From Craspedostauros australis (Eukaryota): a stretch of 20,000 nucleotides of DNA. Shown piece by piece: positions 598 through 19,142 of this stretch; positions within the stretch are counted from its first letter, which is position 1; every line of letters starts with the position of its first letter. The stretch is from NCBI GenBank assembly GCA_030167865.1, contig JALAGF010000333.1:54198-74197 (forward strand), in the 5' to 3' direction. A model generated the notes under the pieces. The model saw only the letters and a program-made list of their open reading frames with translations. It was not told the DNA's origin and made no database searches. The translations under genes were made by a program, and so were the position numbers.

Positions 598-3066
598 ATG
601 AAGTTGCTTTCCATCACAGCCATCGTTGCGGCGACCGCGTTGCTGACTCCCAACGTCAGCGCGTTCACTCCAACCGCGTTGAGAACATCGTCGCCGCTGA
701 TCCATGGAGGAGGCAGCCGAACTGCCCCTGTCCTCACCGTTCTGTCAGCGACCGAGGAGGCCAAAGAGACGGAGAAGCAGCTGCGCAAGGAGATCGAAGC
801 GCGCAATTCCTTGGTCAAGGATGAGGGCCAATACGCCGTCGCAGACGGCGATCGTCTCAGCGCAGGCTTGGACGAGGAGCAGGACAGCATGGATAATGGA
901 TCCGCCGCGGCAGCCCACGACGATGCCCTCAGCGAAACGATGGAGCGCCTGACAAAGCCACGCGCCTACCCGCTGTTCCTCGCGGAAAAGGCCGCCGAAG
1001 TGCTCGAGAGCACCCTGCAGGACTTCCTGCCAGGACCCACCGACGATGCTCCCAATGGAACGAAGGAGCGTCTCGTCATTCTGGGCACGGGATGGGGATC
1101 GGCCGCATTCCTCTCCGAAATCGATTCCTGCATGTACGATGTCACCGTCATTTCGCCACGCAACTACTTCCTCTTCACGCCCATGCTGGCAGGTGCCAGC
1201 GTCGGCACTGTGGAATTCCGTTCCATCACGGAGCCCATCCGTCAGGTGAGCATGCGTTGCACTTGTGTGTTGTCGTGACGAGCGCGCAATTTATCGTGTG
1301 CTTGGCGCACGTTTGGTTGTGCTCAAACACAGTTGCAGAGACAACTCGCATTGTTGGGGCATACGCGTAATGACCAGTCCACTCGAACGAGAAAGCAGCA
1401 GTCCAATTCATCAACCACTTCCCTATTTCTTATAATACTCCACACCTTCTCACATTACTTGCATTCTACTGCTCTCTCTCTCTCCCTGCAATCGCAATCA
1501 CACAGCTCAATGGCAAAGCCATGTACATGGAGGCCACCGCCACATCCGTGGACCCGGACTCCCGAACCATCACGTGCGAATCCGTAATCTGTGATGGCAA
1601 TGCCTGCGATATTGAAGACTTCACCGTCGAATACGACCGTCTCCTCGTCACCGTCGGTGCCCAAACCAACACCTTCGGCATCCCCGGTGTTCGGGAGCAT
1701 TGCAATTACTTGCGACAGATCGAGGATGCGCGTCGCGTCCGCACCTCCATCGTCAACTGCTTCGAACGTGCCAATTTGCCTCATTTGACCGACGAAGAGC
1801 GCGTTAAGAATCTCACGTTTGCTGTCATTGGAGCCGGTCCCACTGGAATGTGAGTTGCGTATATGTGGGTGTGTTGGTGGGTGGGTGTTGGTGGGTGTTG
1901 GAGAAGGTTGAAGAATGGTGCATCGATGTGTACAGTCTGCCATGTTCGTATCCGAAGTGCCGTGCAAGCAATTGTCGCATCCAAGTCTCACCGTGTTTGG
2001 TTCCATGTTTGGTTCCATTTTCTCAATCAACCCCTTCGATGGACGCCTGCAATCGACACATGCATTGATGGATCAAATGATACATACTGTCAAATGCCCC
2101 ACATATGCACATTTGCAATCACCATCAAACCTGCACAGCGAGTTCGCCGCTGAGCTGCGTGATTTCATTGAGCAGGACGGGCCAAAGTTCTACCCCAACC
2201 TGCTCAAGTTCGTGCGCATCAAGGTCATTGAGGCGTCCGGCACCGTCCTTGCACCGTTCGATAAGTCCTTGCAGGAGGAGGCGATCGCACAGATGAACAG
2301 ACAGGTCGAGATCAAGGACCCGGAGGTCGCCAAGCTGTTGCCAGACCGATTCAAGCTGGTGGAGTTGCTGCTCGAGAGCTCCGTGAAGGAGGTCACCGAA
2401 AAGACCATCTTCCTCAACGACGGTTCCTCTTTGGATTACGGATTGTCCGTCTGGGCCGCAGGCAACGGGCCGCTTCCATTCACGCTCGATCTCATCGAGA
2501 AGCTCGGTGAGGAGCAGGCCAGCCAGCAGGACTCCGCGCGTGGACGCATCGCCACCGATCCCTGGATGAGAGCCTACGGCAGCAAGGGATCCGTCATCGC
2601 CTTCGGTGACTGCTCCTGCATCACCCAGGGCATGCTTCCGGCCACAGCGCAGGTCGCATCGCAGCAGGGTGAGTATTTGGCCAAGCTCATGAACAAGAAG
2701 TACGACCTGAGCCCGGAGGTGTCCCAGTCGGGCGTCCTGCCACCACCCACAAAGCAGAAATCTTCCAAGAACGCAACTCCGTCGCTTTCCGACGTGATCG
2801 CCAGCGTGTCGACCAAGTCCATCGAGTACGCCAAACCATTCCAGTTCCTCAACTTGGGAATATTGGCCTACACCGGAGGCGGCTCCGCGTTGGCGCAGGT
2901 ATCCGCCGTGCCCGACACGGATCCGATCAAGGGGACCGGACAGGTCGGAAATGCCGTGTGGAAGGCCGTCTACTTGAGCAAGCAATTCTCCGTCCGCAAC
3001 CGTCTGCTCGTCCTCAACGACTGGACGAACCGGCAGATATTTGGACGCGACATCACCAGACTGTAG
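598..3066 (+). CDS. Type II NAD(P)H:quinone oxidoreductase (NDH-2), probably plastid-targeted; 3 exons 598-1245, 1506-1849, 2139-3066 (639 aa)
   Basis: Motifs: first Rossmann RLVILGTGWGS, SPRNYFLFTPMLAGASVGTVE, YDRLLVTVGAQTNTFGIPGV, second Rossmann GAGPTG-I-EFAAEL (restored by splicing), VWAAG, FGDC, and quinone-site AQVASQQG. Introns 1246-1505 (GTGAG..CACAG) and 1850-2138 (GTGAGT..CACAG) join the exons in frame (1920 nt). N-terminus MKLLSITAIVAATALLTPNVSA|FTP is a signal peptide plus ASAFAP-like motif. Confidence 0.93.
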
Positions 3067-4230: not shown

Positions 4231-4905
4231 TCAATCTTCATCGCTATCATCATCATCATCGCTGCTACTGCTGCTGGAGTCGCTGAGGTTCATTGTGGTA
4301 GCAATAACCCGCGGCTGATTGCGCGGGGCGCGATTTCTCGGTTGCTGAGAAGCGCGATCCGCGGTGGTGGACGACTGACCCGCAGCCGACTGCTGCCGTT
4401 GCTGCGTCTTGGCGTTGCCGCTGCTGGGATCATCCGTCTTGCCTGCGGCTGCGGATTGGTTCTTGGCCTCCTCCTCCGCTGCCTTCTTCTTCGTCTCCCT
4501 GGCCTTGGCCTCCTCCTCTTCCTCTCGCTTGCGCTTCTTGTCGCGCTCCGACTGGCGTGCCTGGTTGAGCTGCAGAGTCGCCAACGCTCCGCCCCGCAAC
4601 TGATGCGGCAGCGGGTTCGGCGTGCAAAAGCCCACCACCGGAGCGTTGGGGTTCCAACCAGCCGGCGCCGACGTCCTCGCGGAGTAGTTCCTCGCGACGG
4701 CCAGGACCTGCTGCACTTCCTGCATCGTGCGGGGGATGGGGCGCACGCGCTTCTTGAACTGATCGCGCGACGAAGTGGATTTGGAGAGCCACGGCTCCAC
4801 CGTCTCCAGCTTCGCCGTGATGGATCGCTCCACCTCGATCATTTCCCGCAGTCTCGACAGCAGATCCGCGTCTGGCTTTCGTTGTTCGCCTCTTTCCTCC
4901 ATCAT
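4231..4905 (-). CDS. MED4: Mediator subunit 4-like protein (about 224 aa)
   Basis: VQQVLAVARNYSARTSAPAGWNPNAPVVGFCTPNPLPHQLRGGAL resembles the conserved Med4 C-terminal block (L..A..IS..T.AP..W.P......P.P....R.G.L). It is followed by a charged segment and a Ser/Asp tail (LSDSSSSSSDDDDDSDED). Start taken at the ATGATG at 4905. Confidence 0.65.
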   Translation of the reverse strand: MMEERGEQRKPDADLLSRLREMIEVERSITAKLETVEPWLSKSTSSRDQFKKRVRPIPRTMQEVQQVLAVARNYSARTSAPAGWNPNAPVVGFCTPNPLPHQLRGGALATLQLNQARQSERDKKRKREEEEEAKARETKKKAAEEEAKNQSAAAGKTDDPSSGNAKTQQRQQSAAGQSSTTADRASQQPRNRAPRNQPRVIATTMNLSDSSSSSSDDDDDSDED

Positions 4906-5630
4906 AGTAGTCCTCGTATTGTGTTGGTCCTGGTTTGCCTCGTTGCCTTGTTGTGTCGTTGTGTCGTTGTGTCGTCGGAGCGAGAGTGTTGCGTTTGTGC
5001 TTGGGTGGTGCCGCATCTGTGGCCTTCGTCGTTGTTGCTCTTGTCATCGTTGTTGTTGTTGGGAACACAACACAGCGAAACAAAAGATCTGGTTGTTCAT
5101 GTAATTCGTTGCGTGACTGACTGTCTGTTTGCGTTTCTCACATGGCTGTCTACACACTATTAGGCACATTCGGCATGTTTCAGTCTGCACTTCTACCGTC
5201 TGAGAAACAACAAGGGTTTCTCAGCTGATCTAGATCACAAAGTGCTTGTGTGTTGGTTGCTCAAGGCACCATGACAAACTATCTGACCAGCGCCAGTGCT
5301 CTAAACGATCGTTTGTCGTCATGGGAGAAAGTAACAACCCAGTTATCACCTCTGATGCACACATGGCGTGGCCAAGAACATTGGCTTCGGTCGGTCGTCC
5401 TGGGAGTACGTGAATGGATTGGTTCAGTCGCGGGTTGACATTGGTATCTTTTTGTCCAGAAGCACCAGACATGCGCAGATGCGTAACTGCTTCCGATTGA
5501 GCTGAGGATCGGGCAGAGCGAGCAAGGGAGGGACAGGAGCAGACATCGGTTGCCACTTCGTCCCATGCTTGGATTGACATGAGCGGACGCAACGACACAG
5601 GAAGAGAATAATTGCAAAGCAGCTCTTGCG

Positions 5631-7052
5631 ATGTCAACGAAGCCAACAATCGTGAAGACCAGATGCGCGCCTCGGTGGTGGCAGACCTGTGCCTGGATCT
5701 CAGTGTGGCTGCTTGTTGTGCAACTGCACCATGCACCCGACGTGATGGCATGGTCGCCATCGTCGTTCCTGAGGAGCAGCCGAAGCGTGATCCTTCCCGT
5801 TGCATCGACAACACCATGTCTTGCAGCAATGATTGGTAATCAGTTCAGGCCGGCGGGAGAGAGCAAGGCGCTATTTGGGCAAGCCGTTGACCGACCGAGC
5901 CGTCGACGTTGCCGCAGGTTCACGTCGTATCTCGCTGTGGCTGGATCTTCTTCGTTGGACGCTGACGGTGATGGCGGTGTCGATAATACCGACAATGACA
6001 GTGGATCCAGCGCAATGGAGAACGCCCAATCCAGTGCGCATTCAGTATTATCAGGATCGGAGGCAGCGGGAGTGGCCGCCCAGCAAAGCGCTATCGCAGA
6101 TATCCGTAGCTGTTCCAGATGGCTCATATGTTCCGCCATCTTTGACATGATTATCAATTCGATCATTTCGGAGAAGGTGATCCCAACCTTGCAGCTCTGG
6201 CGTCAAGGTGAATGGTATGTCACGGACATGGAAGAGTCGCTGCTTCTGGTTCTGGAGCCAGTGTGGAAGATTGCGCTGTCCGTTGGATTGCTGGGAGAGT
6301 ACGGTGGCGCGCAACAGAGCAGAAATGGCAGCAAAGATGCTGGCAACGATGCTGGGCAGACGATTGATGCCACAAAGCCGCAGGAGTCGCTGGTGTCTCG
6401 ATGGACAACGACGGCCAAGTTGTGGAGAGAATCGTCGTGGTTCTTTGCTTTCACTGCATGCGTCGAATTCACGGAGATATTCCATGACGATGTGAGGGCA
6501 TGGTTGGCCATGATTGCCACCTGCATCTTCGGGTCCTTGTGGATGAGACGTTGGACGCAGATGCAGTTGAGTGGACGCCTGGATGACTCTTCGTTCGCCA
6601 CGACGGGATATCGGGTTGTGCGCAACATGGCGCTGTGCTCCGGGGCGTTGCTCCTGCAAACCATCGTGGGAATAGCGCTGGCATTCAGCAGCGTCTTCGT
6701 AGAGTCTAAGGAGAGAGGTCTTGCTATTGGCGATGCGTTCCTTGGCGCGTTTGGAAATACGAAGGCTATTTCCACGTTGCTGCTGAGATTGGTGAGCGTA
6801 CGGACCCCGCTGATCATGGGGTGGTTGCTGTGGAGGTTGCGCAAGGCGACAGCGACGACGGTCATCGCTTCCATGGAGTCAGGTGGTGCTGATGCTGGAC
6901 GCAATGAAGGCGACGAGAAGGTGGGAGACAAGCTGTGGGATGCGCAGTCCAACTTTTACAGGAAGGTGCGAGACACGATGAGAGGAGAAGTCCTCTCGAA
7001 GACGACGGCCCTGGTTGCGCTCAGATTGGTTTCGCTACTTAAGTTCATCTGA
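5631..7052 (+). CDS. Unknown multi-pass membrane protein (473 aa), possibly plastid-targeted
   Basis: 1.4-kb uninterrupted ATG-started ORF with several hydrophobic segments (WLICSAIFDMII, LLLVLEPVWKIALSVGLLG, AWLAMIATCIFGSLW, LCSGALLLQTIVGIALAFSSVF). A hydrophobic N-terminal stretch is followed by VMA|WSPSS and a Ser/Arg-rich transit-like region. No family recognised. Confidence 0.7.
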   Translation: MSTKPTIVKTRCAPRWWQTCAWISVWLLVVQLHHAPDVMAWSPSSFLRSSRSVILPVASTTPCLAAMIGNQFRPAGESKALFGQAVDRPSRRRCRRFTSYLAVAGSSSLDADGDGGVDNTDNDSGSSAMENAQSSAHSVLSGSEAAGVAAQQSAIADIRSCSRWLICSAIFDMIINSIISEKVIPTLQLWRQGEWYVTDMEESLLLVLEPVWKIALSVGLLGEYGGAQQSRNGSKDAGNDAGQTIDATKPQESLVSRWTTTAKLWRESSWFFAFTACVEFTEIFHDDVRAWLAMIATCIFGSLWMRRWTQMQLSGRLDDSSFATTGYRVVRNMALCSGALLLQTIVGIALAFSSVFVESKERGLAIGDAFLGAFGNTKAISTLLLRLVSVRTPLIMGWLLWRLRKATATTVIASMESGGADAGRNEGDEKVGDKLWDAQSNFYRKVRDTMRGEVLSKTTALVALRLVSLLKFI

Positions 7053-7437: not shown

Positions 7438-7474
7438 CTTTGTTCGTTTGAGTAGGAACAAAAGTTCCTTGTTT
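7438..7474 (-). terminator. Histone 3' stem-loop element, H3 copy (hairpin 7454-7469; ACAAAG 7438-7443)
   Basis: Minus strand reads AAACA AGGAAC TTTT GTTCCT ACTCAAACGA ACAAAG; the hairpin begins 240 nt after the H3 stop codon. Confidence 0.85.
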
Positions 7475-7709
7475 GTTTGTTGTTTGATTGCTTGGTGTTG
7501 CTTGTGTTTGTTGGCCGAATCGATGGGAGACGAGCTGGTGCGGATCGCTGCAAGTGCACGTGAAGGAGGGTTTAGTTCCCACGCATGCAATCGCAGCATC
7601 CGTTGCCCAGCACGGTAGCGCGCTGCGCGGAGGCAAACGGCCACTCCATCGGTTCGTGTTCGTGTTTGTTTTCGTGTGCTCGATGTCACTTGGTGTGGAC
7701 ACTGTGCAC

Positions 7710-9074
<1,365 letters not shown>

Positions 9075-9207
9075 GTGATACGATCGCTCTACCGCACAGC
9101 AATAGAAAAGCGTGCGAGAACCACCAACGCCAAACAACACACATGGGACTTCTGATTGACCAACTGCACAAAACGAGCAGTGAAAGCAGCAACGAAAACA
9201 AAAAATA

Positions 9208-9239
9208 CAAACAACAACAAACAAACAAACAAACAAACA
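9208..9239 (+). repeat. (AAC)/(AAAC)n simple repeat abutting the H4 hairpin
   Basis: caaacaacaacaaacaaacaaacaaacaaaca directly precedes AGGAAC. Confidence 0.85.
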
Positions 9240-9271
9240 AGGAACTTTTGTTCCTACTCAAACCAACAAAG
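9235..9271 (+). terminator. Histone 3' stem-loop element, H4 copy (hairpin 9240-9255; ACAAAG 9266-9271)
   Basis: AAACA AGGAAC TTTT GTTCCT ACTCAAACCA ACAAAG; 165 nt after the H4 stop. Confidence 0.85.
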
Positions 9272-11362
9272 CCAACAACTCCAAACCTGTCCTGCGCTTG
9301 TGCATTTGCAGATTCATTTTGCTGCCTGTTGTCGACTCATCCGCATCCAGCCAATTTTGTGCACGCAGCATACACTCCTCGTCAGTGGTCAATCGGCAGA
9401 TTGCAACAATCAAAGCTATTCCACATCTAAAACATAATAATATAATTGTACACATTCATTTACCAATCCAACACGCCGCGCGCCTTTTCATAGACCGTAG
9501 CAAACTTAGCGCGTACTTATGATAGCAGCAACGAGCGTGATGACAACCAGCGCAGATCCGGTGATGATCATCCACAACCCTGTTGAGACGTGGTGAGACG
9601 CGGTGCTGTTACGTCAACATGCTCTCACATTCGACCACGATTGCAGACAAGTGCGGACAAATGCACGTGATCAGAAATGGCCGAGATTTCTGTGTTCGGT
9701 TTTCAGAATTGGGTCTACTTCTGTACTCGGCGCGCACCTTCCCACATTTTCCGCACCAACACGCAAACACACACAAAACCGTTCCATGCATCGCATAACA
9801 GGATGAGGACATCAGGTGGTGCATCCCAATGGATCGAAGCGCATGAAGCGGAATCTCGTGCATCATATATGCGCATGTAATGATGGACGTGCGGTGCTGC
9901 GGGTTTCTCCTCATTGCCCATGATTGAACGAACGATCATCCGAGACGCACCAGGATGTGAAGTGGACCAAGTTTGGACATGCCATGATTCACAACTGTCG
10001 CGGATCAAAGACGATGTTTAGAAATGGCGGAATGAATCAGCGCAAGATGCGACGGACAATGCGTGATGGTCTTCAGAGGTAAGTATGATGGTGACACAAT
10101 CGAGCACTCCTGCAGTTGCTGTAGCGAGAATAGTACCAGGGGGTACATGAGGTTGTGCAGAGATTCGCTGCATGATGGTTTTGTGAACAAACGGCACTCT
10201 GGCGAGCAGTTCGAATGTGCCGCTTCGCTGCGAAGCATCCAGCGCGGTGAAAGAATAAAATGCCCACCTGTTACTCTCAATCGCATGTCCTGCATACAAT
10301 GAATCTCATAATGCGAGTACCATTTCACACAGATGTCCGCATTCAGAACCAAGCGGCACAGTTGCGCGATGCGTTTTCAGAATTGTTATCGAACAGCGAC
10401 GATTGTGTCCCTCTCCTGCATGATTTCTGATCACCGAGCACTCCAGAACAAACCACACCTGCATCGTCTCAACCAATGCATGCGTTCACAGCGTATTCTA
10501 CAACACCATGCACATGATGATTTGCCCAGATATAGTCAGATGGAATGCTGCAGCTTACTCTTCTGTAAATGGAATGCGGCCTGTCGTTTTCCGTACCACG
10601 CTCGGCGTATCGGGATGGATTCTGGATGATCAGGACGGGAGAGGAGAAATGGACAGGATTGGTTGGAACTCAATTCACCAACATTCATCATTACGATTTT
10701 GCTTTGTTCACTGCTGCTGTAGCATTCAATGACAATGGAAGTGCGATTCATGGGGAGCAGCAACTCGCAGGCCTCGCTACACTTCCACAGAGATGAAATA
10801 AAATTCTACCCATCATCTCTCTCCTCCTCTCAATTGAGTGCCACCACCTCACAACATACCAATGATGACAGAGTTGCTGCTTTGGGATGATTTGATCCAC
10901 AACACCAATACAGCATGCAGCAGCCTCCAAATGCGGAAACGAGCCCACTTTGTATCACCGCACAGGTTAGCTAGTGCATATTTTCATAGTGGAGCAGCCG
11001 ATCTACAATGCAAGTACTGCCATGAGGAAAGAGAGACGAGATACACCCAATCCGCTGCAATTCCAAGTTGGTTTCAGGGTTGCGTCTCGTGTGGTGCCGA
11101 TTACTCATCGAAGATTTCTTCTGGAACATTCCAGAGAGGGTGCGCACTAAAGTGACTACAAAAGTACCTTTTGCCAACACAGAAACGAACCTTCGTCAGA
11201 CGGTCCTCGTTTTCCGACTCAGCAGTGTTCGAACAACCAGTCTGCGCTATGTGATGCCTGTGATGGAGCAACACAAGGATCACTGAGTTGTTCATCGTTT
11301 GCATCGGAACAAAGGATGTACGAGCACGCTGGATTGGAGGGGCCATAACGACAACAACCATC

Positions 11363-12692
11363 ATGAAGCTCCTAACCTCATGCCTCCTCGTGACAAGCAC
11401 GAGCGCCTTCCAAGCGCCGCTGCCAACAAAGCACCACGGCCGTCGCGGCACGTTCCTTCAAGCCGATATTCCGTTCGACGTGGAGCCCAGCGATGTCAGC
11501 ACCAGCGGCAGCACCGCACGCGAGGATCTGCTGACCACGGCGCAATCCTTGAACGATAAGTACGGCCTGCTGATCATCGACAAGAACTCCAAAACGACGC
11601 TGAATGATGCCGCGAAGACGTTGGAAAACGAGACGGTTCCAGCCAACACGGACGTCAACATGCTGATCGGGGAATGGGATCTGGTGTGCTCCACCGCCAT
11701 GCTGGCGTCGGACAAGCAAAAGTCGTTCGGCATCAACGTCGATGATCTGCCCTTGATCAACGCATCGCCGATCGCGGACTTGCGACGCAACATCAAGAAA
11801 TCGTTGGATCTGCAGGTGCAGCAGGTCATCAAGAAGACCTCGGACGACGACGGCGTTGCCATCGATCGCGTGGACCACGTGCTGCAGTCGACGCCGCTGA
11901 ACCTGTTCCGCGATGTGGTGGTGCGCAACGACGATGTTCCGCAGCAGCTGCGTGATTCTCTCAGCAACGTGGATTTGAATCCGCTGAAGGTGGGCACGAC
12001 CAAGGCTGTGCTGGTCCACAAGGCCGAGGTCAAGTCATCGGATCCGCAGCTGGATGTGCAGTTGAATCTTCAGAGCGTCGTGTGTAAGTCGACAACGACT
12101 TGTATTGGGGAGGCAATTGGATGACAACGCGTTCACAATTGCGTGAGGTTGTGTTATGTTTGGGACATGCGCCAATTATGTGAAGCTTTGCAGAGGAGTT
12201 GGTGATGATGCTTTGCCCTCATTCGTTCCACTGACATTGTCTTCATTCACCTATCTCGTATCGCATCTCATTGTTGCTGCAGTGAACGTCGCTGGCAAGT
12301 CTGAACAGCTGGATCCAAATGGCGCGGATGTTCTCGGACTGAATATTCCGCTGTCCGAATTCTTGGACGGCGGCTCTTTCAAGACTACGTACATGGATGA
12401 GACGCTTCGCATCAGTCGCAGCAAGACAGGCATTGTGGAACAGCTTCGTGTGTTCACGCGTGCCCCAAAGGAGGAAGAAAGCGTTGATGAAGTGATCGAG
12501 GATGAGGCTGATGCAGAATTGATTCCACTCGATGATGACGACGAAGTTGATGTTGCCGCCGTTGAGAAGGGGATAGCGACAGAGACAGCTATCCCAATCG
12601 ATGCTGTTGTGGAGGATAAGGAGACCACTAACGAGACCGAGACAGAATCTGACGAAGAAACCGATGACGATGAGGGTAACCGTGATAAATAG
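11363..12692 (+). CDS. Plastid lipid-associated protein (PAP)/fibrillin family; exons 11363-12083, 12283-12692 (376 aa)
   Basis: Bipartite targeting signal MKLLTSCLLVTSTSA|FQAP. Fibrillin-like motifs LIGEWDLVCST, VQQVI and GSFKTTYMDETLRISRS...LRVFTR, plus an acidic tail. Intron 12084-12282 (GTAAGT..TGCAG) gives in-frame VVLNVAG. Confidence 0.85.
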
Positions 12693-12867
12693 ATGAAGGT
12701 TGAGCGTACTTTACAGTTGCTATACTTATATAATATTACACTGCTCTAGCTTTGTGCCTGCTTTGAAACTGGGAGATGGCGTGGTAGTGGTGATGAGAGA
12801 TGGAGAAAGGAAGAGGACGGTGCAAGGGTGAGGTGTCAGTTCAAGCACGCGCACGTGTGGATGGTCT

Positions 12868-12904
12868 CTTTGTTGGTTTGGGTAGGAACAAAAGTTCCTT
12901 GTTT
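12868..12904 (-). terminator. Histone 3' stem-loop element, H1 copy (hairpin 12884-12899; ACAAAG 12868-12873)
   Basis: Minus strand AAACA AGGAAC TTTT GTTCCT ACCCAAACCA ACAAAG(AG); 109 nt after the H1 stop. Confidence 0.85.
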
Positions 12905-13008
12905 TGGTTTGATTTTTCGGGGTTTTTAAATGTGTGGGTGGTGTATGTTGTTGTTGTGGGTGCTGTTGCGCATTGGCAAACATGGACGTTCATACCATGA
13001 CGACCTGC

Positions 13009-13575
13009 TTACTTCTTGGCAGCGACAGGGGTCTTCTTTGGCTTGGTGACCTTCTTGGCAGTGGTAGTCTTCTTGGTCGCAGCAACCTTCTTCTTCGTGG
13101 TGGTCGCGGTCTTTGCCTTTGCCTTGGGCTTGGTTGCTGTCTTCTTCTTGGCTGGAGTCTTCTTCGCTGCTGCGGCAGTGGTCTTCTTTGGCTTGGTGGC
13201 CTTCTTGGCAGTGGTGGTGGTGGCCACCTTCTTCTTGGTCGTCGTGGTCTTTTTCTTTGCGGCGGTGACCTTCTTCGTCGCTGTCTTCTTCTTGGGGGCA
13301 GCCTTCTTCTTGACGACCTTCTTCTTTGGCTTCGGTGGCTCGGCCTTCTTCTTCATCGCCTTCTTGAAGTCGGCGGAGAGCTTGTACGAGTTCTTCACCT
13401 TGACGAAGTCTCCCTTCTCGACTCCGTTCTTGAGGGTGGAAAGGAAGGTGGCGTTGAGCCACTTCTTCTCCTTTGGCAGGTTCTCCTGCATGTGCTTCTT
13501 GATGGCGATCATGGAAGTACCATTGCGGTCCTTGAACTCCAGGATGGCCTTGATGACTCCTTCCTTGTACGACAT
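13009..13575 (-). CDS. H1: Linker histone H1 (188 aa)
   Basis: Globular winged-helix domain SYKEGVIKAILEFKDRNGTSMIAIKKHM...LKNGVEKGDFVKVKNSYKLS, followed by a K/T/A/P-rich tail. ATG at 13575 in the context cagcaccATG. Confidence 0.96.
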   Translation of the reverse strand: MSYKEGVIKAILEFKDRNGTSMIAIKKHMQENLPKEKKWLNATFLSTLKNGVEKGDFVKVKNSYKLSADFKKAMKKKAEPPKPKKKVVKKKAAPKKKTATKKVTAAKKKTTTTKKKVATTTTAKKATKPKKTTAAAAKKTPAKKKTATKPKAKAKTATTTKKKVAATKKTTTAKKVTKPKKTPVAAKK

Positions 13576-13870
13576 GGTGCTGTTGCTTGCGGTTGCGTTA
13601 ACGTTGCTGGTATTGTTTTTTCTGATTGTTGTTATTATTGTTTGATGGTGACAATGATGGCTGATTGCTGCAAGTGTGTTGTTGTTTGCTCGTTTCAATT
13701 GTTTCTTCACTGCAGAGATGTGCGAAGTCAACCATGTCATCCACCGCGTTGAACTACTTGACAACAACAACAACATTCATCATCACAAGCGACCACACGC
13801 GTTGACATCGTGTTGCCCCACCTGATTTGTTTCTGTTCTGTCATTTCTGCGTTCGTGTGGGGCAAGGGAG

Positions 13871-14419: not shown

Positions 14420-15835
14420 TCACACGATGCTCCATTCGATCTCCTCTCCCGCCTTCAAAGGAGTCACCGTGTTCTCACCAAACTCGTACGTCTCCGGGAC
14501 AGTCCACGACTTCTTCTTCAACGTCAAGGTGTGCGTGTTGCGAGCCAAACCGTAATGATCAGCACCGAACGAGCTGCAGAAGTCCTCCAGCCTGTCCAGC
14601 TTGCCCTCCTTCTCAAACACGCTCGCGTAGATCTCGATGCAGCAGTGCGCGGAAAACACTCCGGCGCATCCACATGCCGACTCCTTCGTCTCCGTCACGT
14701 GAGGAGCAGAGTCCGTGCCAAGGAAGAACTTGGGGTTGCCGCTGGTGGCTGCCTTCACCAGTGCGAGGCGGTGCACTTCCGCCTTGAGGATGGGGAGGCA
14801 GTAGAGATGGGGTCGGATGCCTCCAACGAGCATGTCTGAAGTGATGGAGGGTGTATGAGTGAGTGAGTGAGAGTGTCCGTGAGTGTGTATTGGAGTGTTG
14901 GTTGCGATGGTGGAAAGAGATGGGGTGGTGTGAGTCGCAGCTTGCAATGGTTTGCATACTACGCTGTGCCATAGTCGTGCCGACCGGTGGGATAGAATCA
15001 TATGGGCAGTCCCAATACTTCAACCATCCACAGAATCAACGGCAACCATTCCGTGGATCAATAGCAGCCACATCTGCAGCCACGGCCACAACCACAACCA
15101 CAAGCACGACCACAAGCACGACCACAGCCACGACCACAACCACTTACCATTCCTGTTGTAGATGAGATGATGGCATGTGATGCTCGCTTTCAGGTTGGAG
15201 GGTGCAGACATCACATACTCCACAGCCTCCCTCGTCGAAATGTGCTCCATCGTCATCTTGAGGGTAGGGAAGTCACGCACCAACGGCTTCATGATCTCCT
15301 CGATGAACACCGGCTCCCTCTCGAAGATGTCGGCATGGGTGACCTCCGAATGGATGCACAACATCATCCCCACCTTCTGCATCTCGGCCAGCACGGGATA
15401 GAGGTTGTTGACGTCCGTGACGCCGAAGTCCGAGTTGGTGGTTGCACCAGCTGGGTAGTACTTGCAACCGATGATGGTGGGGGTGCCATCGTCATTCTTG
15501 AGCTCGCTGGCTGTCTTGATATCTTCCGGCGATGTCTTGTCTGTGAGGTAGAGGGTCATGAGGGGTTGGAAGTTGCTCGTTGTTGTATCTGCATCTGCAT
15601 CTCCATCTGCATCAGTTGCAGTTGGCATGGAAGCCAAGATGCGTTGTTTGTATTCGAGAGCGAGCTTTGAGTTGACGACCGGCGGCTTGAGGTTTGGCAT
15701 GCAGAGACATCTTGAGAAACGCTTGGTTGCATGGGTGAGGATGGAAGCGGTGGCAGGTCCATCACGGGTGTGGTGATGGAAGTCATCGGGGAACCTGATG
15801 GTGATGCGTTGTGGTGGTGTCGATGTTGATGTCAT
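14420..15835 (-). CDS. pyrC: Dihydroorotase, E. coli PyrC/yeast URA4 type; exons 15835-15148, 14835-14420 (367 aa)
   Basis: Motifs PDDFHHHTRDG (HxH), [70 protein letters not shown] and KESACGCAG. Intron 15147-14836 (GTAAGT..TTCAG) restores the frame (1104 nt). Confidence 0.96.
15081..15143 (-). repeat. Degenerate hexamer tandem repeat (GTGGTY/GTGCTT/GTGGCY) at the 5' end of the pyrC intron
   Basis: Plus strand cacggccacaaccacaaccacaagcacgaccacaagcacgaccacagccacgaccacaaccac shows period-6 CAC, about 10 units. Confidence 0.8.
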
Positions 15836-16420
15836 GGTGGTTGGAGTCTGGGTTGATAATTGACGGGATTGTTGTTGTTGTTAGTGTGGAGGCGATGATG
15901 GCAGAGTGATGATGATGGGGATGAGTGTGGTGGGAGCGTTCTGTTCTGTTCTGTTGTGTTTCGTGAATTTGTTGAGGATGGCGCTGATGTGTGTGGTGGT
16001 GATTGTCTGGTTGTCACACGGGTGTGAACAGTATTATGTTTGAGACACGAGATGGTGATGTGTCGAGGGACTGGATGTATTGCGTGAGTACGACAGGTAT
16101 CTTTTGTTGTGTTGATTTCTTGTTTGAATTGTTGGGCATGTGACTTCTGCAGCGTGCTGCTGTGGTGGCTGGGTTATAACAAGTGTCGGTACGAGTAAAA
16201 TCATATGGAGAGTGTAGTTGTGTGAAGTGATGAAAGTTAAGTCTATTGGGTGTATTGAGAGTGCTGTAAGGCCAATCTGCGTGTGTGCGTGGGTTGTCTA
16301 CAATAATGGTTTGGAAGTGTCAGGACGAACAAGAGTCGAAGGTGGAGAGTAGAGGGGCAATGTGCATTGATTCATGTTGTTGGTTGTCAGCTGGTAGTTT
16401 GGACGTGTGTGTGTGTGTGT

Positions 16421-16457
16421 CTTTGTGTGGTTGAGTAGGAACAAAAGTTCCTTGTTT
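16421..16457 (-). terminator. Histone 3' stem-loop element, H2A copy (hairpin 16437-16452; ACAAAG 16421-16426)
   Basis: Minus strand AAACA AGGAAC TTTT GTTCCT ACTCAACCAC ACAAAG; 278 nt after the H2A stop. Confidence 0.85.
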
Positions 16458-16730
16458 GTTTGTTGTTGTTTGTATGTTTTTGTTTTCTGTTTGTTTGTGT
16501 GTCTGCAATTGTCATGGAGTTGTGGGGATGAGTGGTTGGACAGATGGATGTGATGCTGGTGGTGGTATCGGTGAAGTCATGCCACGCCATCTCATTGTAG
16601 AGTATGGTAGTGCATGGCCTTTCTCAACACCACGCATCAGTGCAATCGCAGTTGCCATCAATCAATCTATCAGTCTCCCCATGTTTCTCTCCGTCGTTGT
16701 CCTTCAATTGAGAGCGTTGACATCCAGCGC

Positions 16731-17299
16731 TTATTTGCTGCTAGAAGACTTCTTTGGCAGAAGCACTGCGTGGATGTTGGGCAGCACACCACCGCTAGCA
16801 ATGGTCACTCCTCCCAGCAGTCTGTTCAGCTCCTCATCGTTCTTCACGGCCAGAGTGATGTGACGCGGCACAATACGGCTCTTCTTGTTGTCACGGGCGG
16901 CGTTGCCTGCAAGCTCAAGAATCTCGGCGCAAAGGTACTCGAGAACGGCAGCAAGGTACACTGGGGCACCTGCTCCCATTCGTGTGGCGTACTTTCCTTG
17001 ACGCAAGTATCGTCCGATACGACCGACTGGGAACTGAAGTCCTGCCTTGGCAGATGCGCTTGTGGCCTTCTTTTCGCCACGGCCTCCTTTTCCTTTTCCT
17101 GTTGTTGTCATGTGTTGAATGGTTGGTGTGAGATGGAAGAGGAATGGCGATGGGTGTGAGAAGTCAGGGTGGAATGGTTGTCACAAGAGCGATGGCAGTC
17201 ACGGTCACTTTCGTTGCAAACAGAACACATTCGACATCGCACACACACAAACGTGCATGTACGCACAGAACTCCAACTTCATCAACACTTACCAGACAT
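16731..17299 (-). CDS. H2A: Histone H2A; coding exons 17299-17293 (ATGTCTG) and 17098-16731 (124 aa)
   Basis: [17 protein letters not shown]...[24 protein letters not shown]...[28 protein letters not shown] at 17299-17287 spliced to CAG|GA AAA at 17098 gives [10 protein letters not shown]. No SQ motif at the C-terminus. Confidence 0.96.
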
Positions 17300-18467: not shown

Positions 18468-18821
18468 ATGGCCAAGACTCCCTCCAAGCAATCCGCCAAG
18501 ACACCAAAGAAGGCATCCACCGGATCCTCCAAGTCCAAGAAGCGTACCGAGACATACTCGTCTTACATCTACAAGGTCCTGAAGCAGGTCCACCCAGATA
18601 CCGGAATCTCCAAGAAGGGAATGTCCATCATGAACTCCTTCATCAACGATATCTTCGAGCGTATCGCCACCGAGGCAGGAAAGCTCGCCACATACAACAA
18701 GAAGGCCACTCTGTCTTCACGAGAGATCCAGACTGCCGTCCGCCTGATGCTTCCAGGAGAGTTGGCCAAGCACGCCGTCTCTGAGGGAACCAAGGCTGTG
18801 ACCAAGTTCAGCTCCAGCTAA
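18468..18821 (+). CDS. H2B: Histone H2B (117 aa)
   Basis: [16 protein letters not shown]...[40 protein letters not shown]...[19 protein letters not shown]. Confidence 0.98.
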
Positions 18822-19105
18822 GCGTTGTACCGAAGCAATGCTGTATGATCGACTGAGACTTGGATGGTGCAAGGACCAGGTGGGTGTGAACCGTGGAACC
18901 ATGAAGTAGCAGTACACGATGAGAAGCGATGTGAATTCATCGGAGCTTGTCGTGTGGCTGTTGCGCATGACATGTGTGCCATCCATCTTTGAACCAACAA
19001 TACCAACCACAGGCATCAGCAACTGATTACTGCAGTCAACTTACGGCCAAAACGAAGACAAAACAACACAGAAACAAAACAACAAACACAAACAAACAAA
19101 CAAAC

Positions 19106-19142
19106 AAACAAGGAACTTTTGTTCCTACTCAACCACACAAAG
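19106..19142 (+). terminator. Histone 3' stem-loop element, H2B copy (hairpin 19111-19126; ACAAAG 19137-19142)
   Basis: AAACA AGGAAC TTTT GTTCCT ACTCAACCAC ACAAAG; 289 nt after the H2B stop and preceded by (AAAC)n. Confidence 0.85.

Follow-up and report, generated by a model that had tools for sequence, protein, structure and literature searches.

What lies behind the hairpin at the 3' ends of diatom histone genes, and does anything read it? In animals the histone downstream element (HDE) is read by U7, a small nuclear ribonucleoprotein (snRNP) whose components and partners include U7 small nuclear RNA (snRNA), Lsm10, Lsm11, FLASH and CPSF73. The question is raised here by a stretch of 20,000 nucleotides (nt) of Craspedostauros australis DNA (contig JALAGF010000333.1, positions 54,198 to 74,197, forward strand; hereafter the window), which contains one copy each of the genes for histones H3, H4, H1, H2A and H2B, with the H3/H4 and H2A/H2B pairs divergent. 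A hexamer, ACAAAG, stands at one fixed distance past an identical hairpin in each of these genes. A first-pass annotation, made from the DNA letters, had taken the host for a stramenopile and the hexamer for a candidate HDE implying a U7-like snRNA. The host assignment agrees with an NADH dehydrogenase fragment (Table 1) whose top matches, in Fistulifera, Nitzschia, Cylindrotheca, Pseudo-nitzschia, Fragilariopsis and Seminavis, mark the host as a raphid pennate diatom. As argued below, ACAAAG is a real and probably functional HDE-like element, and its reader may be either an RNA or a protein.

The hairpin AGGAAC-TTTT-GTTCCT is identical 3' of all five genes and lies in gene orientation at each. 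Searching the window with the pattern GGAAC-WWWW-GTTCC returned five exact matches, every one of them 3' of a histone gene; shuffled windows gave a mean of 0.61 matches, and none of 200 reached 6. A sixth candidate (6121-6134) carries two mismatches and was set aside as unrelated. With the closing A-T pair counted, the stem is 6 bp long and the UUUU loop 4 nt, and the hairpin is found in both the minimum free energy and the centroid fold of all five flanks. Its layout in stem, loop, second pair and flanks is that of the stem-loops bound by SLBP, with a G-C second pair, uridines as first and third loop bases, and flanks that are A/C-rich on the 5' side and read ACYCA on the 3' side; the second pair and the two loop uridines are positions described as diagnostic of SLBP binding in the available part of a preprint survey (10.64898/2026.10.14.759114). 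All of these features, together with association with H1 as well as the four core histones, are held in common with the metazoan stem-loop (Rfam RF00032), from which the diatom hairpin differs in the sequence of its stem (AGGAAC/GTTCCT and not GGYYYU/ARRRCC). It is also like the stem-loops of Chlamydomonas/Volvox, Dictyostelium and protists in being a histone hairpin outside animals. Davila Lopez and Samuelsson (2008), cited in the same preprint, reportedly described non-animal histone stem-loops.

An A/C-rich, (CAAA)n-like tract precedes every hairpin, and its final 5 nt (AAACA) are invariant. The phase of this tract relative to the hairpin is constant in four of the five genes, where ACAAACAAACAA abuts GGAAC (7438-7520 and 16421-16503 on the minus strand, 9190-9271 and 19058-19142 on the plus strand); the H1 version is degenerate. 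ACAAAG itself resembles the (CAAA)n repeat unit.

Directly 3' of the stem all five genes read ACYCAAMCVM, followed by ACAAAG at +11 to +16 (+1 being the first nucleotide past the stem). The hexamer therefore begins exactly 10 nt past every hairpin, as the first-pass annotation had it, and the flank letters it gave for the five genes, including the AAAGAG of the H1 copy, were recovered unchanged. Agreement per column from +1 to +16 is 5545553523555555 (of 5), with 12 of 16 columns invariant and a longest invariant run of 6. Beyond +16 agreement falls to 2-4 of 5, the level that A/C-rich composition predicts, so that conservation stops at +16, immediately after the final G where likeness had been said to end. 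Positional conservation was assessed by aligning the five flanks on the hairpin, against three nulls: random 16-nt pieces of the genes' own upstream A/C-rich tracts, pieces of their own downstream flanks, and independent, identically distributed composition. Conservation as strong as that observed occurred in 0 of 200,000 random alignments under each null, and the placement of ACAAAG is clearly non-random.

Within the 20-kb window the hairpin-plus-ACAAAG block is confined to the five histone genes. ACAAAG alone occurs 19 times, compared with 12.5 +/- 3.5 expected, and 12 of 200 shuffles reached 19; as the hexamer is not enriched window-wide, the signal is purely positional. From +17 to +100 the five flanks have no 6-mer in common and their shared 5-mers stand at the shuffle level, and a search of the same interval for a GU-rich or other second downstream element found none. 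The histone untranslated regions (UTRs) are otherwise unalignable among the five genes, so the cassette that they hold in common points to selection. In the centroid folds the block downstream of the hairpin is unpaired in three of the five flanks. Coordinates are collected in Table 1.

Table 1. Positions of the histone genes, their 3' signals and related features in the window
Feature	Position	Strand	Remarks
Histone H3 gene	7710..8120	-	Open reading frame (ORF); Pfam Histone, E 2.1e-48
Histone H4 gene	8766..9074	+	ORF, Pfam scan
Linker histone H1 gene	13009..13578	-	Pfam Linker_histone, E 8e-14
Histone H2A gene	16731..17111	-	ORF, Pfam scan
Histone H2B gene	18468..18821	+	ORF, Pfam scan
H3 hairpin AGGAAC-TTTT-GTTCCT	7454..7469	-	240 nt past stop codon
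H4 hairpin	9240..9255	+	165 nt past stop codon
H1 hairpin	12884..12899	-	109 nt past stop codon
H2A hairpin	16437..16452	-	278 nt past stop codon
H2B hairpin	19111..19126	+	289 nt past stop codon
H3 flank block, +1 to +16	7438..7453	-	ACTCAAACGA + ACAAAG at 7438-7443
H4 flank block, +1 to +16 (the reported finding)	9256..9271	+	ACTCAAACCA + ACAAAG at 9266-9271
H1 flank block	12868..12883	-	ACCCAAACCA + ACAAAG at 12868-12873; next AGA, hence AAAGAG
H2A flank block	16421..16436	-	ACTCAACCAC + ACAAAG at 16421-16426
H2B flank block	19127..19142	+	ACTCAACCAC + ACAAAG at 19137-19142
(CAAA)n A/C-rich tract ending at H4 hairpin	9196..9239	+	Similar tract 5' of all five hairpins
ORF of 85 codons, non-coding, across H1 3' UTR, hairpin and ACAAAG	12729..12983	-	Identical to P0122 (source mmetsp); reaches 155 nt past stem
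Stretch equal to P0121 residues 26-79	16301..16462	-	Exact match; H2A hairpin and ACAAAG, with stop 139 nt past stem
NADH dehydrogenase fragment	2149-3063		Best protein matches raphid pennate diatoms, 70-73% identity

For comparison with established histone 3' signals we used 73 eukaryotic histone loci that an H4 scan of prokaryote genome contigs had brought up as contaminants, 12 of which were examined closely. Most of the 73 carry canonical GGYYYTTTTYARRRCC hairpins, and we infer that they are animal DNA. In five clusters (L063, L068, L107, L108 and L113) the genes within a cluster have in common a purine/A-rich block whose start lies at +10 to +15 and whose end lies at +19 to +23, past which the likeness between genes is lost. 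The diatom block agrees with the animal HDE in being a purine-rich block (5/6 purines) common to all histone classes and set a short, constant distance 3' of an SLBP-type hairpin; in starting at +11, within the range of the comparison clusters; in having an ACCCA-like site ahead of it; and in marking the point directly after which likeness between genes stops. It differs in ending at +16, in an invariant core of 6 nt compared with 8-10 or more, in an A/C-only context, in the greater distance of its hairpin from the stop codon and in the assembled transcripts that cross it. The preprint survey, in its available text, scores HDEs only as generic 'AAA/AAGA' runs (10.64898/2026.10.14.759114).

Is ACAAAG transcribed? 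The species has a public transcriptome, and indirect evidence was obtained by translating the window's own 3' UTRs and probing protein collections with the resulting peptides. One entry, P0122, equals the H1-flank ORF (12983-12729, minus strand) in 85 of 85 residues, is colinear with it and, with its stop codon, extends to +158. A second, P0121 (also from mmetsp, matched in 79 of 79 residues), is made of two parts: residues 1-25 equal the H4 3' UTR at 9143-9217 (+) and the remainder the H2A flank. Because the switch sits in a stretch common to the H4 and H2A UTRs, P0121 probably stems from a contig misassembled as a chimera across the (CAAA)n-hairpin repeat, the 40-45 nt cassette common to all histone genes; even so, its assembly required RNA reads running through the H2A hairpin and on into the unique downstream flank. 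ACAAAG is thus transcribed in at least two genes, H2A and H1. Of nine window ORFs spanning hairpins, exact look-up found this H1-flank ORF alone, four of the five colinear sense ORFs and all four antisense ORFs being absent from the collection. The contigs cross ACAAAG in two of the five genes (to at least +139 in H2A and +158 in H1), where mature, precursor and read-through RNA are inseparable; they carry no abundance information, and the H1 flank faces a convergent gene that ends at 12692. The mmetsp libraries, which belong to a marine-eukaryote transcriptome collection and are probably poly(A)-selected, would then be enriched in read-through forms, and on all three counts the contigs cannot show where mature mRNAs end.

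Polyadenylation cues near the hairpins give a complementary view. The available text of PMC6413133 names UAA as the dominant triplet of the A/U-rich near-upstream element at diatom poly(A) sites. Between stop codon and hairpin the five UTRs hold two TAA in total, TAA is absent from +1 to +125 in all five genes, leaving the vicinity of the hairpin without the canonical near-upstream element, and AATAAA and ATTAAA do not occur in the five histone UTRs. This scarcity argues against canonical polyadenylation near the hairpin. Past it, every gene has its first TAA at +126 to +198, and these positions could be diatom-type downstream poly(A) signals; back-up or alternative poly(A) sites further downstream would fit this pattern.

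We favour, at a probability of roughly 45%, the reading that the segment from +6 to +16 works in the pre-mRNA as a downstream positioning element, equivalent in function to the animal HDE, for endonucleolytic cleavage that depends on the hairpin. ACAAAG would then be the distal terminus of a conserved 3' signal, about 45 nt long and common to the five histone classes, that would consist, in order, of the (CAAA)n A/C-rich tract, the SLBP-type hairpin with its 6-bp stem and 4-nt loop, ACYCA, a 5-nt spacer and ACAAAG. ACYCA would be the counterpart of the animal ACCCA cleavage site, cleavage would fall between hairpin and ACAAAG, and the hexamer would be read by a trans-acting factor, either a U7-like snRNA through its 5' end (anti-HDE CUUUGU) or one of the proteins in the cleavage complex. 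Several observations lead us to this reading. The block keeps one offset in all five genes, occurs nowhere else in the window and exceeds what composition explains; the hairpin has an animal-type anatomy; the geometry of the block, beginning at +11 with five purines in six, fits the comparison clusters; the surroundings of the hairpin lack the canonical poly(A) cues of diatoms; and homologues of LSM10 and LSM11 are reported in stramenopiles. Moreover, animal mature histone mRNA retains about 5 nt past the stem according to the available part of the preprint (10.64898/2026.10.14.759114), and as the constraint seen here reaches to +16, a role in the precursor is suggested.

The nature of the reader is a further step. 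U7 is treated as confined to animals by Marz et al. 2008 (PMC5054213, in the text available), and the sole non-animal U7-like RNA mentioned in the available part of the preprint, which applied RF00066 to 761 protist genomes, is a fungal candidate from Rozella. The same source describes the protein partners of U7 as far more widespread than animals, with LSM10 and LSM11 homologues in stramenopiles, for example Ectocarpus (10.64898/2026.10.14.759114), so that a U7-type particle stays plausible. Within the window none of the 19 CTTTGT sites has an Sm-like site within 85 nt, and a scan of 12 ORFs, the main non-histone ones included, matched no Sm-like or SLBP Pfam family. Our literature search found no paper linking U7 snRNA with diatoms, and nothing relevant on a stem-loop binding protein in diatoms nor, among the matches listed and judged by title and abstract, on the combination of a diatom histone stem-loop with polyadenylation. 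The reader may be a putative U7-like RNA, though we hold this to be doubtful. The fuller proposal, that diatoms process histone pre-mRNA by a putative U7-type snRNP in which CUUUGU near the 5' end of the RNA would pair with ACAAAG 11 nt past the hairpin, is slightly more doubtful. A putative protein reader, although unlikely, is kept beside the U7-type one, since a core of 6 nt, typical of protein sites, is short for pairing with an RNA.

A number of results weigh against the HDE-like reading. The invariant core has just 6 nt, the predicted duplex ACAAAG:CUUUGU reaches -3.6 kcal/mol compared with -11.9 for the 10-nt block of L063, and the bases that alternate in the variable part of the spacer (A/C, G/C/A) do not allow wobble pairing; with such a core and spacer, pairing by RNA alone would be weak. 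The HDE proposal of the first-pass annotation stands as regards a real, histone-specific block at a fixed offset and with animal-like placement, and is weakened in the shortness of the core and the weakness of the duplex. Rfam gave no hits in the window: RF00032 has no match there at E <= 5, the U7 model RF00066 has none there either, and neither has one in 9215-9290 (76 nt) at E <= 10. Stop codon and hairpin are 109-289 nt apart, as against 25-60 nt in animals, while stramenopile stem-loops are typically further downstream of the stop codon (both in the available text of 10.64898/2026.10.14.759114). Transcripts through ACAAAG, although required of an HDE precursor, would equally fit a mature mRNA that contains the motif. 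Finally, a part of the invariance evidently comes from concerted evolution, given that the five flanks form two sequence types, H3/H4/H1 and H2A/H2B, and that the likeness of H3 and H4 continues to about +28 (CTCCA at +24 in both); the five samples are therefore not independent.

The transcript evidence bears on the main alternative, in which hairpin and ACAAAG are internal to a longer, polyadenylated 3' UTR, with cleavage and polyadenylation 150-250 nt downstream, and in which the cassette is bound on the mature mRNA by an RNA-binding protein, SLBP-like or other, in the service of stability, translation or S-phase coupling. We consider this possible, though not likely. Both P0122 and P0121 match the window exactly and cross the hexamer, the first TAA follows in all five genes after a TAA-free zone as would suit diatom-type sites (PMC6413133, available text), and the hairpins stand far from the stop codon, a placement which the available part of the preprint describes for stramenopiles and elsewhere ties to relaxed or remodelled use of the stem-loop (10.64898/2026.10.14.759114). 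The same contigs lose force, however, in that poly(A)-selected libraries recover read-through forms even when most mRNAs end at the hairpin, the contigs being silent on abundance; P0121 is probably chimeric, the H1-flank contig, if unstranded, could come from the convergent neighbour, and most of the hairpin-crossing ORFs are absent from the collection. Binding of the animal SLBP type also needs little 3' flank, and the constraint at +6 to +16 would be left unexplained.

The two flank types give some room to another alternative, namely that ACAAAG has no role of its own, that just the hairpin and its immediate flanks are functional, and that a cassette from about -12 to +16 was copied among the genes by gene conversion or duplication, its 3' boundary being the end of the copied tract. 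H2A and H2B are identical over +1 to +16, and H3, H4 and H1 differ from one another at 1-2 positions. The division into a changeable spacer and a constant hexamer depends on 4 variable columns, all four of which would miss the last six by chance with P = C(10,4)/C(16,4) = 0.115; ACAAAG is moreover similar to ACAAAC, the repeat unit upstream, and to the ACAAGG junction. Yet copying would have to end at the same base in five genes despite kilobase distances between the pairs and differing orientations, and the flanks past +16 are unrelated between types. Conversion would also even out the spacer, yet it is there that the types differ: all between-type differences lie at +7, +9 and +10, and three differences fall within any 4-nt span with P = 40/560 = 0.07. 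This clustering hints at two constrained halves, ACTCAA and ACAAAG. We regard a purely copied cassette as quite unlikely. That ACAAAG acts as a DNA-level site, for a termination or roadblock factor of RNA polymerase II or for a factor organising the histone locus, seems to us very improbable. Its orientation and offset are fixed relative to each gene as such a site might be, but the region is transcribed, the hexamer is embedded in an RNA-type signal of hairpin and single-stranded A/C flanks, and we know of no comparable DNA element of histone genes.

A further point against the HDE-like reading comes from the search for other species: no relative with AGGAAC-TTTT-GTTCCT was found in the viral, metagenome, prokaryote-genome or protein collections searched. 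A 17-mer (hairpin plus TAC) hit 32 loci in viral contigs, none with an A/C tract or ACAAAG, and a 20-mer hit one locus of unrelated coding DNA in metagenome contigs; both sets were rejected as chance matches. Protein searches of viral contigs with H2B and H4 gave 9 and 18 loci, with just 3 perfect 6-bp/4-nt hairpins within 400 nt of the matches and no hairpin like that of the window, and GGAAC-N4-GTTCC was present in none of the 73 eukaryotic loci from the H4 search of prokaryote genome contigs. A word-index search with the H4-flank ORF returned P0121 alone and no other species, as did a profile search in which the five frame-A peptides were compared with 1.84 billion representatives.

The comparison loci themselves (L061-L133) stand in assemblies labelled as bacterial or archaeal genomes or metagenome-assembled genomes, many as whole tandem clusters, and are host or eukaryote contamination of prokaryote bins. 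One of them, L116:1-1722, from a contig labelled as a Bacillota metagenome-assembled genome, is a GC-rich eukaryote with a divergent H3/H4 pair and the hairpin TGGTGTT-TATTA-AACACCA in both 3' flanks, with an A/C tract of CCAAAC type ahead of it and CTTGGAA behind it at +11 (H3) or +14 (H4); it represents a second non-canonical histone hairpin with a common downstream motif.

Elsewhere in the window, a 261-codon ORF at 4231-5016 (-) with a long acidic/basic tail matches Med4 (Mediator subunit 4) weakly (24.1 bits, Pfam cut-off 26.9). A 473-codon open frame at 5631-7052 (+), convergent with H3, matched no Pfam family and had no homologue in a collection of 5.8 billion proteins; it may not be a gene, or may be lineage-restricted. 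The adjacent same-strand ORFs 15020-15835 (-) and 14420-15001 (-), neither of which matched a Pfam family, are possibly one interrupted gene, a candidate dihydroorotase. A 12-nt tandem repeat, CCACGACCACAA, in 5.3 copies at 15080-15143, occupies the 3' end of the former just upstream of the latter and may be an intronic or low-complexity insert.

In the literature searched we found no defined hexamer at a fixed offset past a diatom histone hairpin, and the available part of the preprint names no diatom (no Bacillario-, Phaeodactylum or Thalassiosira; 10.64898/2026.10.14.759114). On the reading favoured here, what follows the divergent histone stem-loop of this diatom is a downstream element specific to its lineage. 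Should mature messages prove to be polyadenylated and to carry the motif, they would exemplify a 'hairpin plus poly(A)' intermediate state, such as the available text of the same preprint proposes for early fungi (10.64898/2026.10.14.759114). The practical value of a fixed hexamer at a fixed distance past the hairpin is as a lineage-specific handle in the search for U7. Such a handle is needed because U7 evolves too fast for homology searches. ACAAAG predicts both an anti-HDE, CUUUGU, and a cleavage window, which makes the question testable in a transformable algal group. If a U7-type snRNP does act here, U7 and HDE would for the first time be found paired outside opisthokonts, and the U7 ruler mechanism would have to be dated back towards the last eukaryotic common ancestor.

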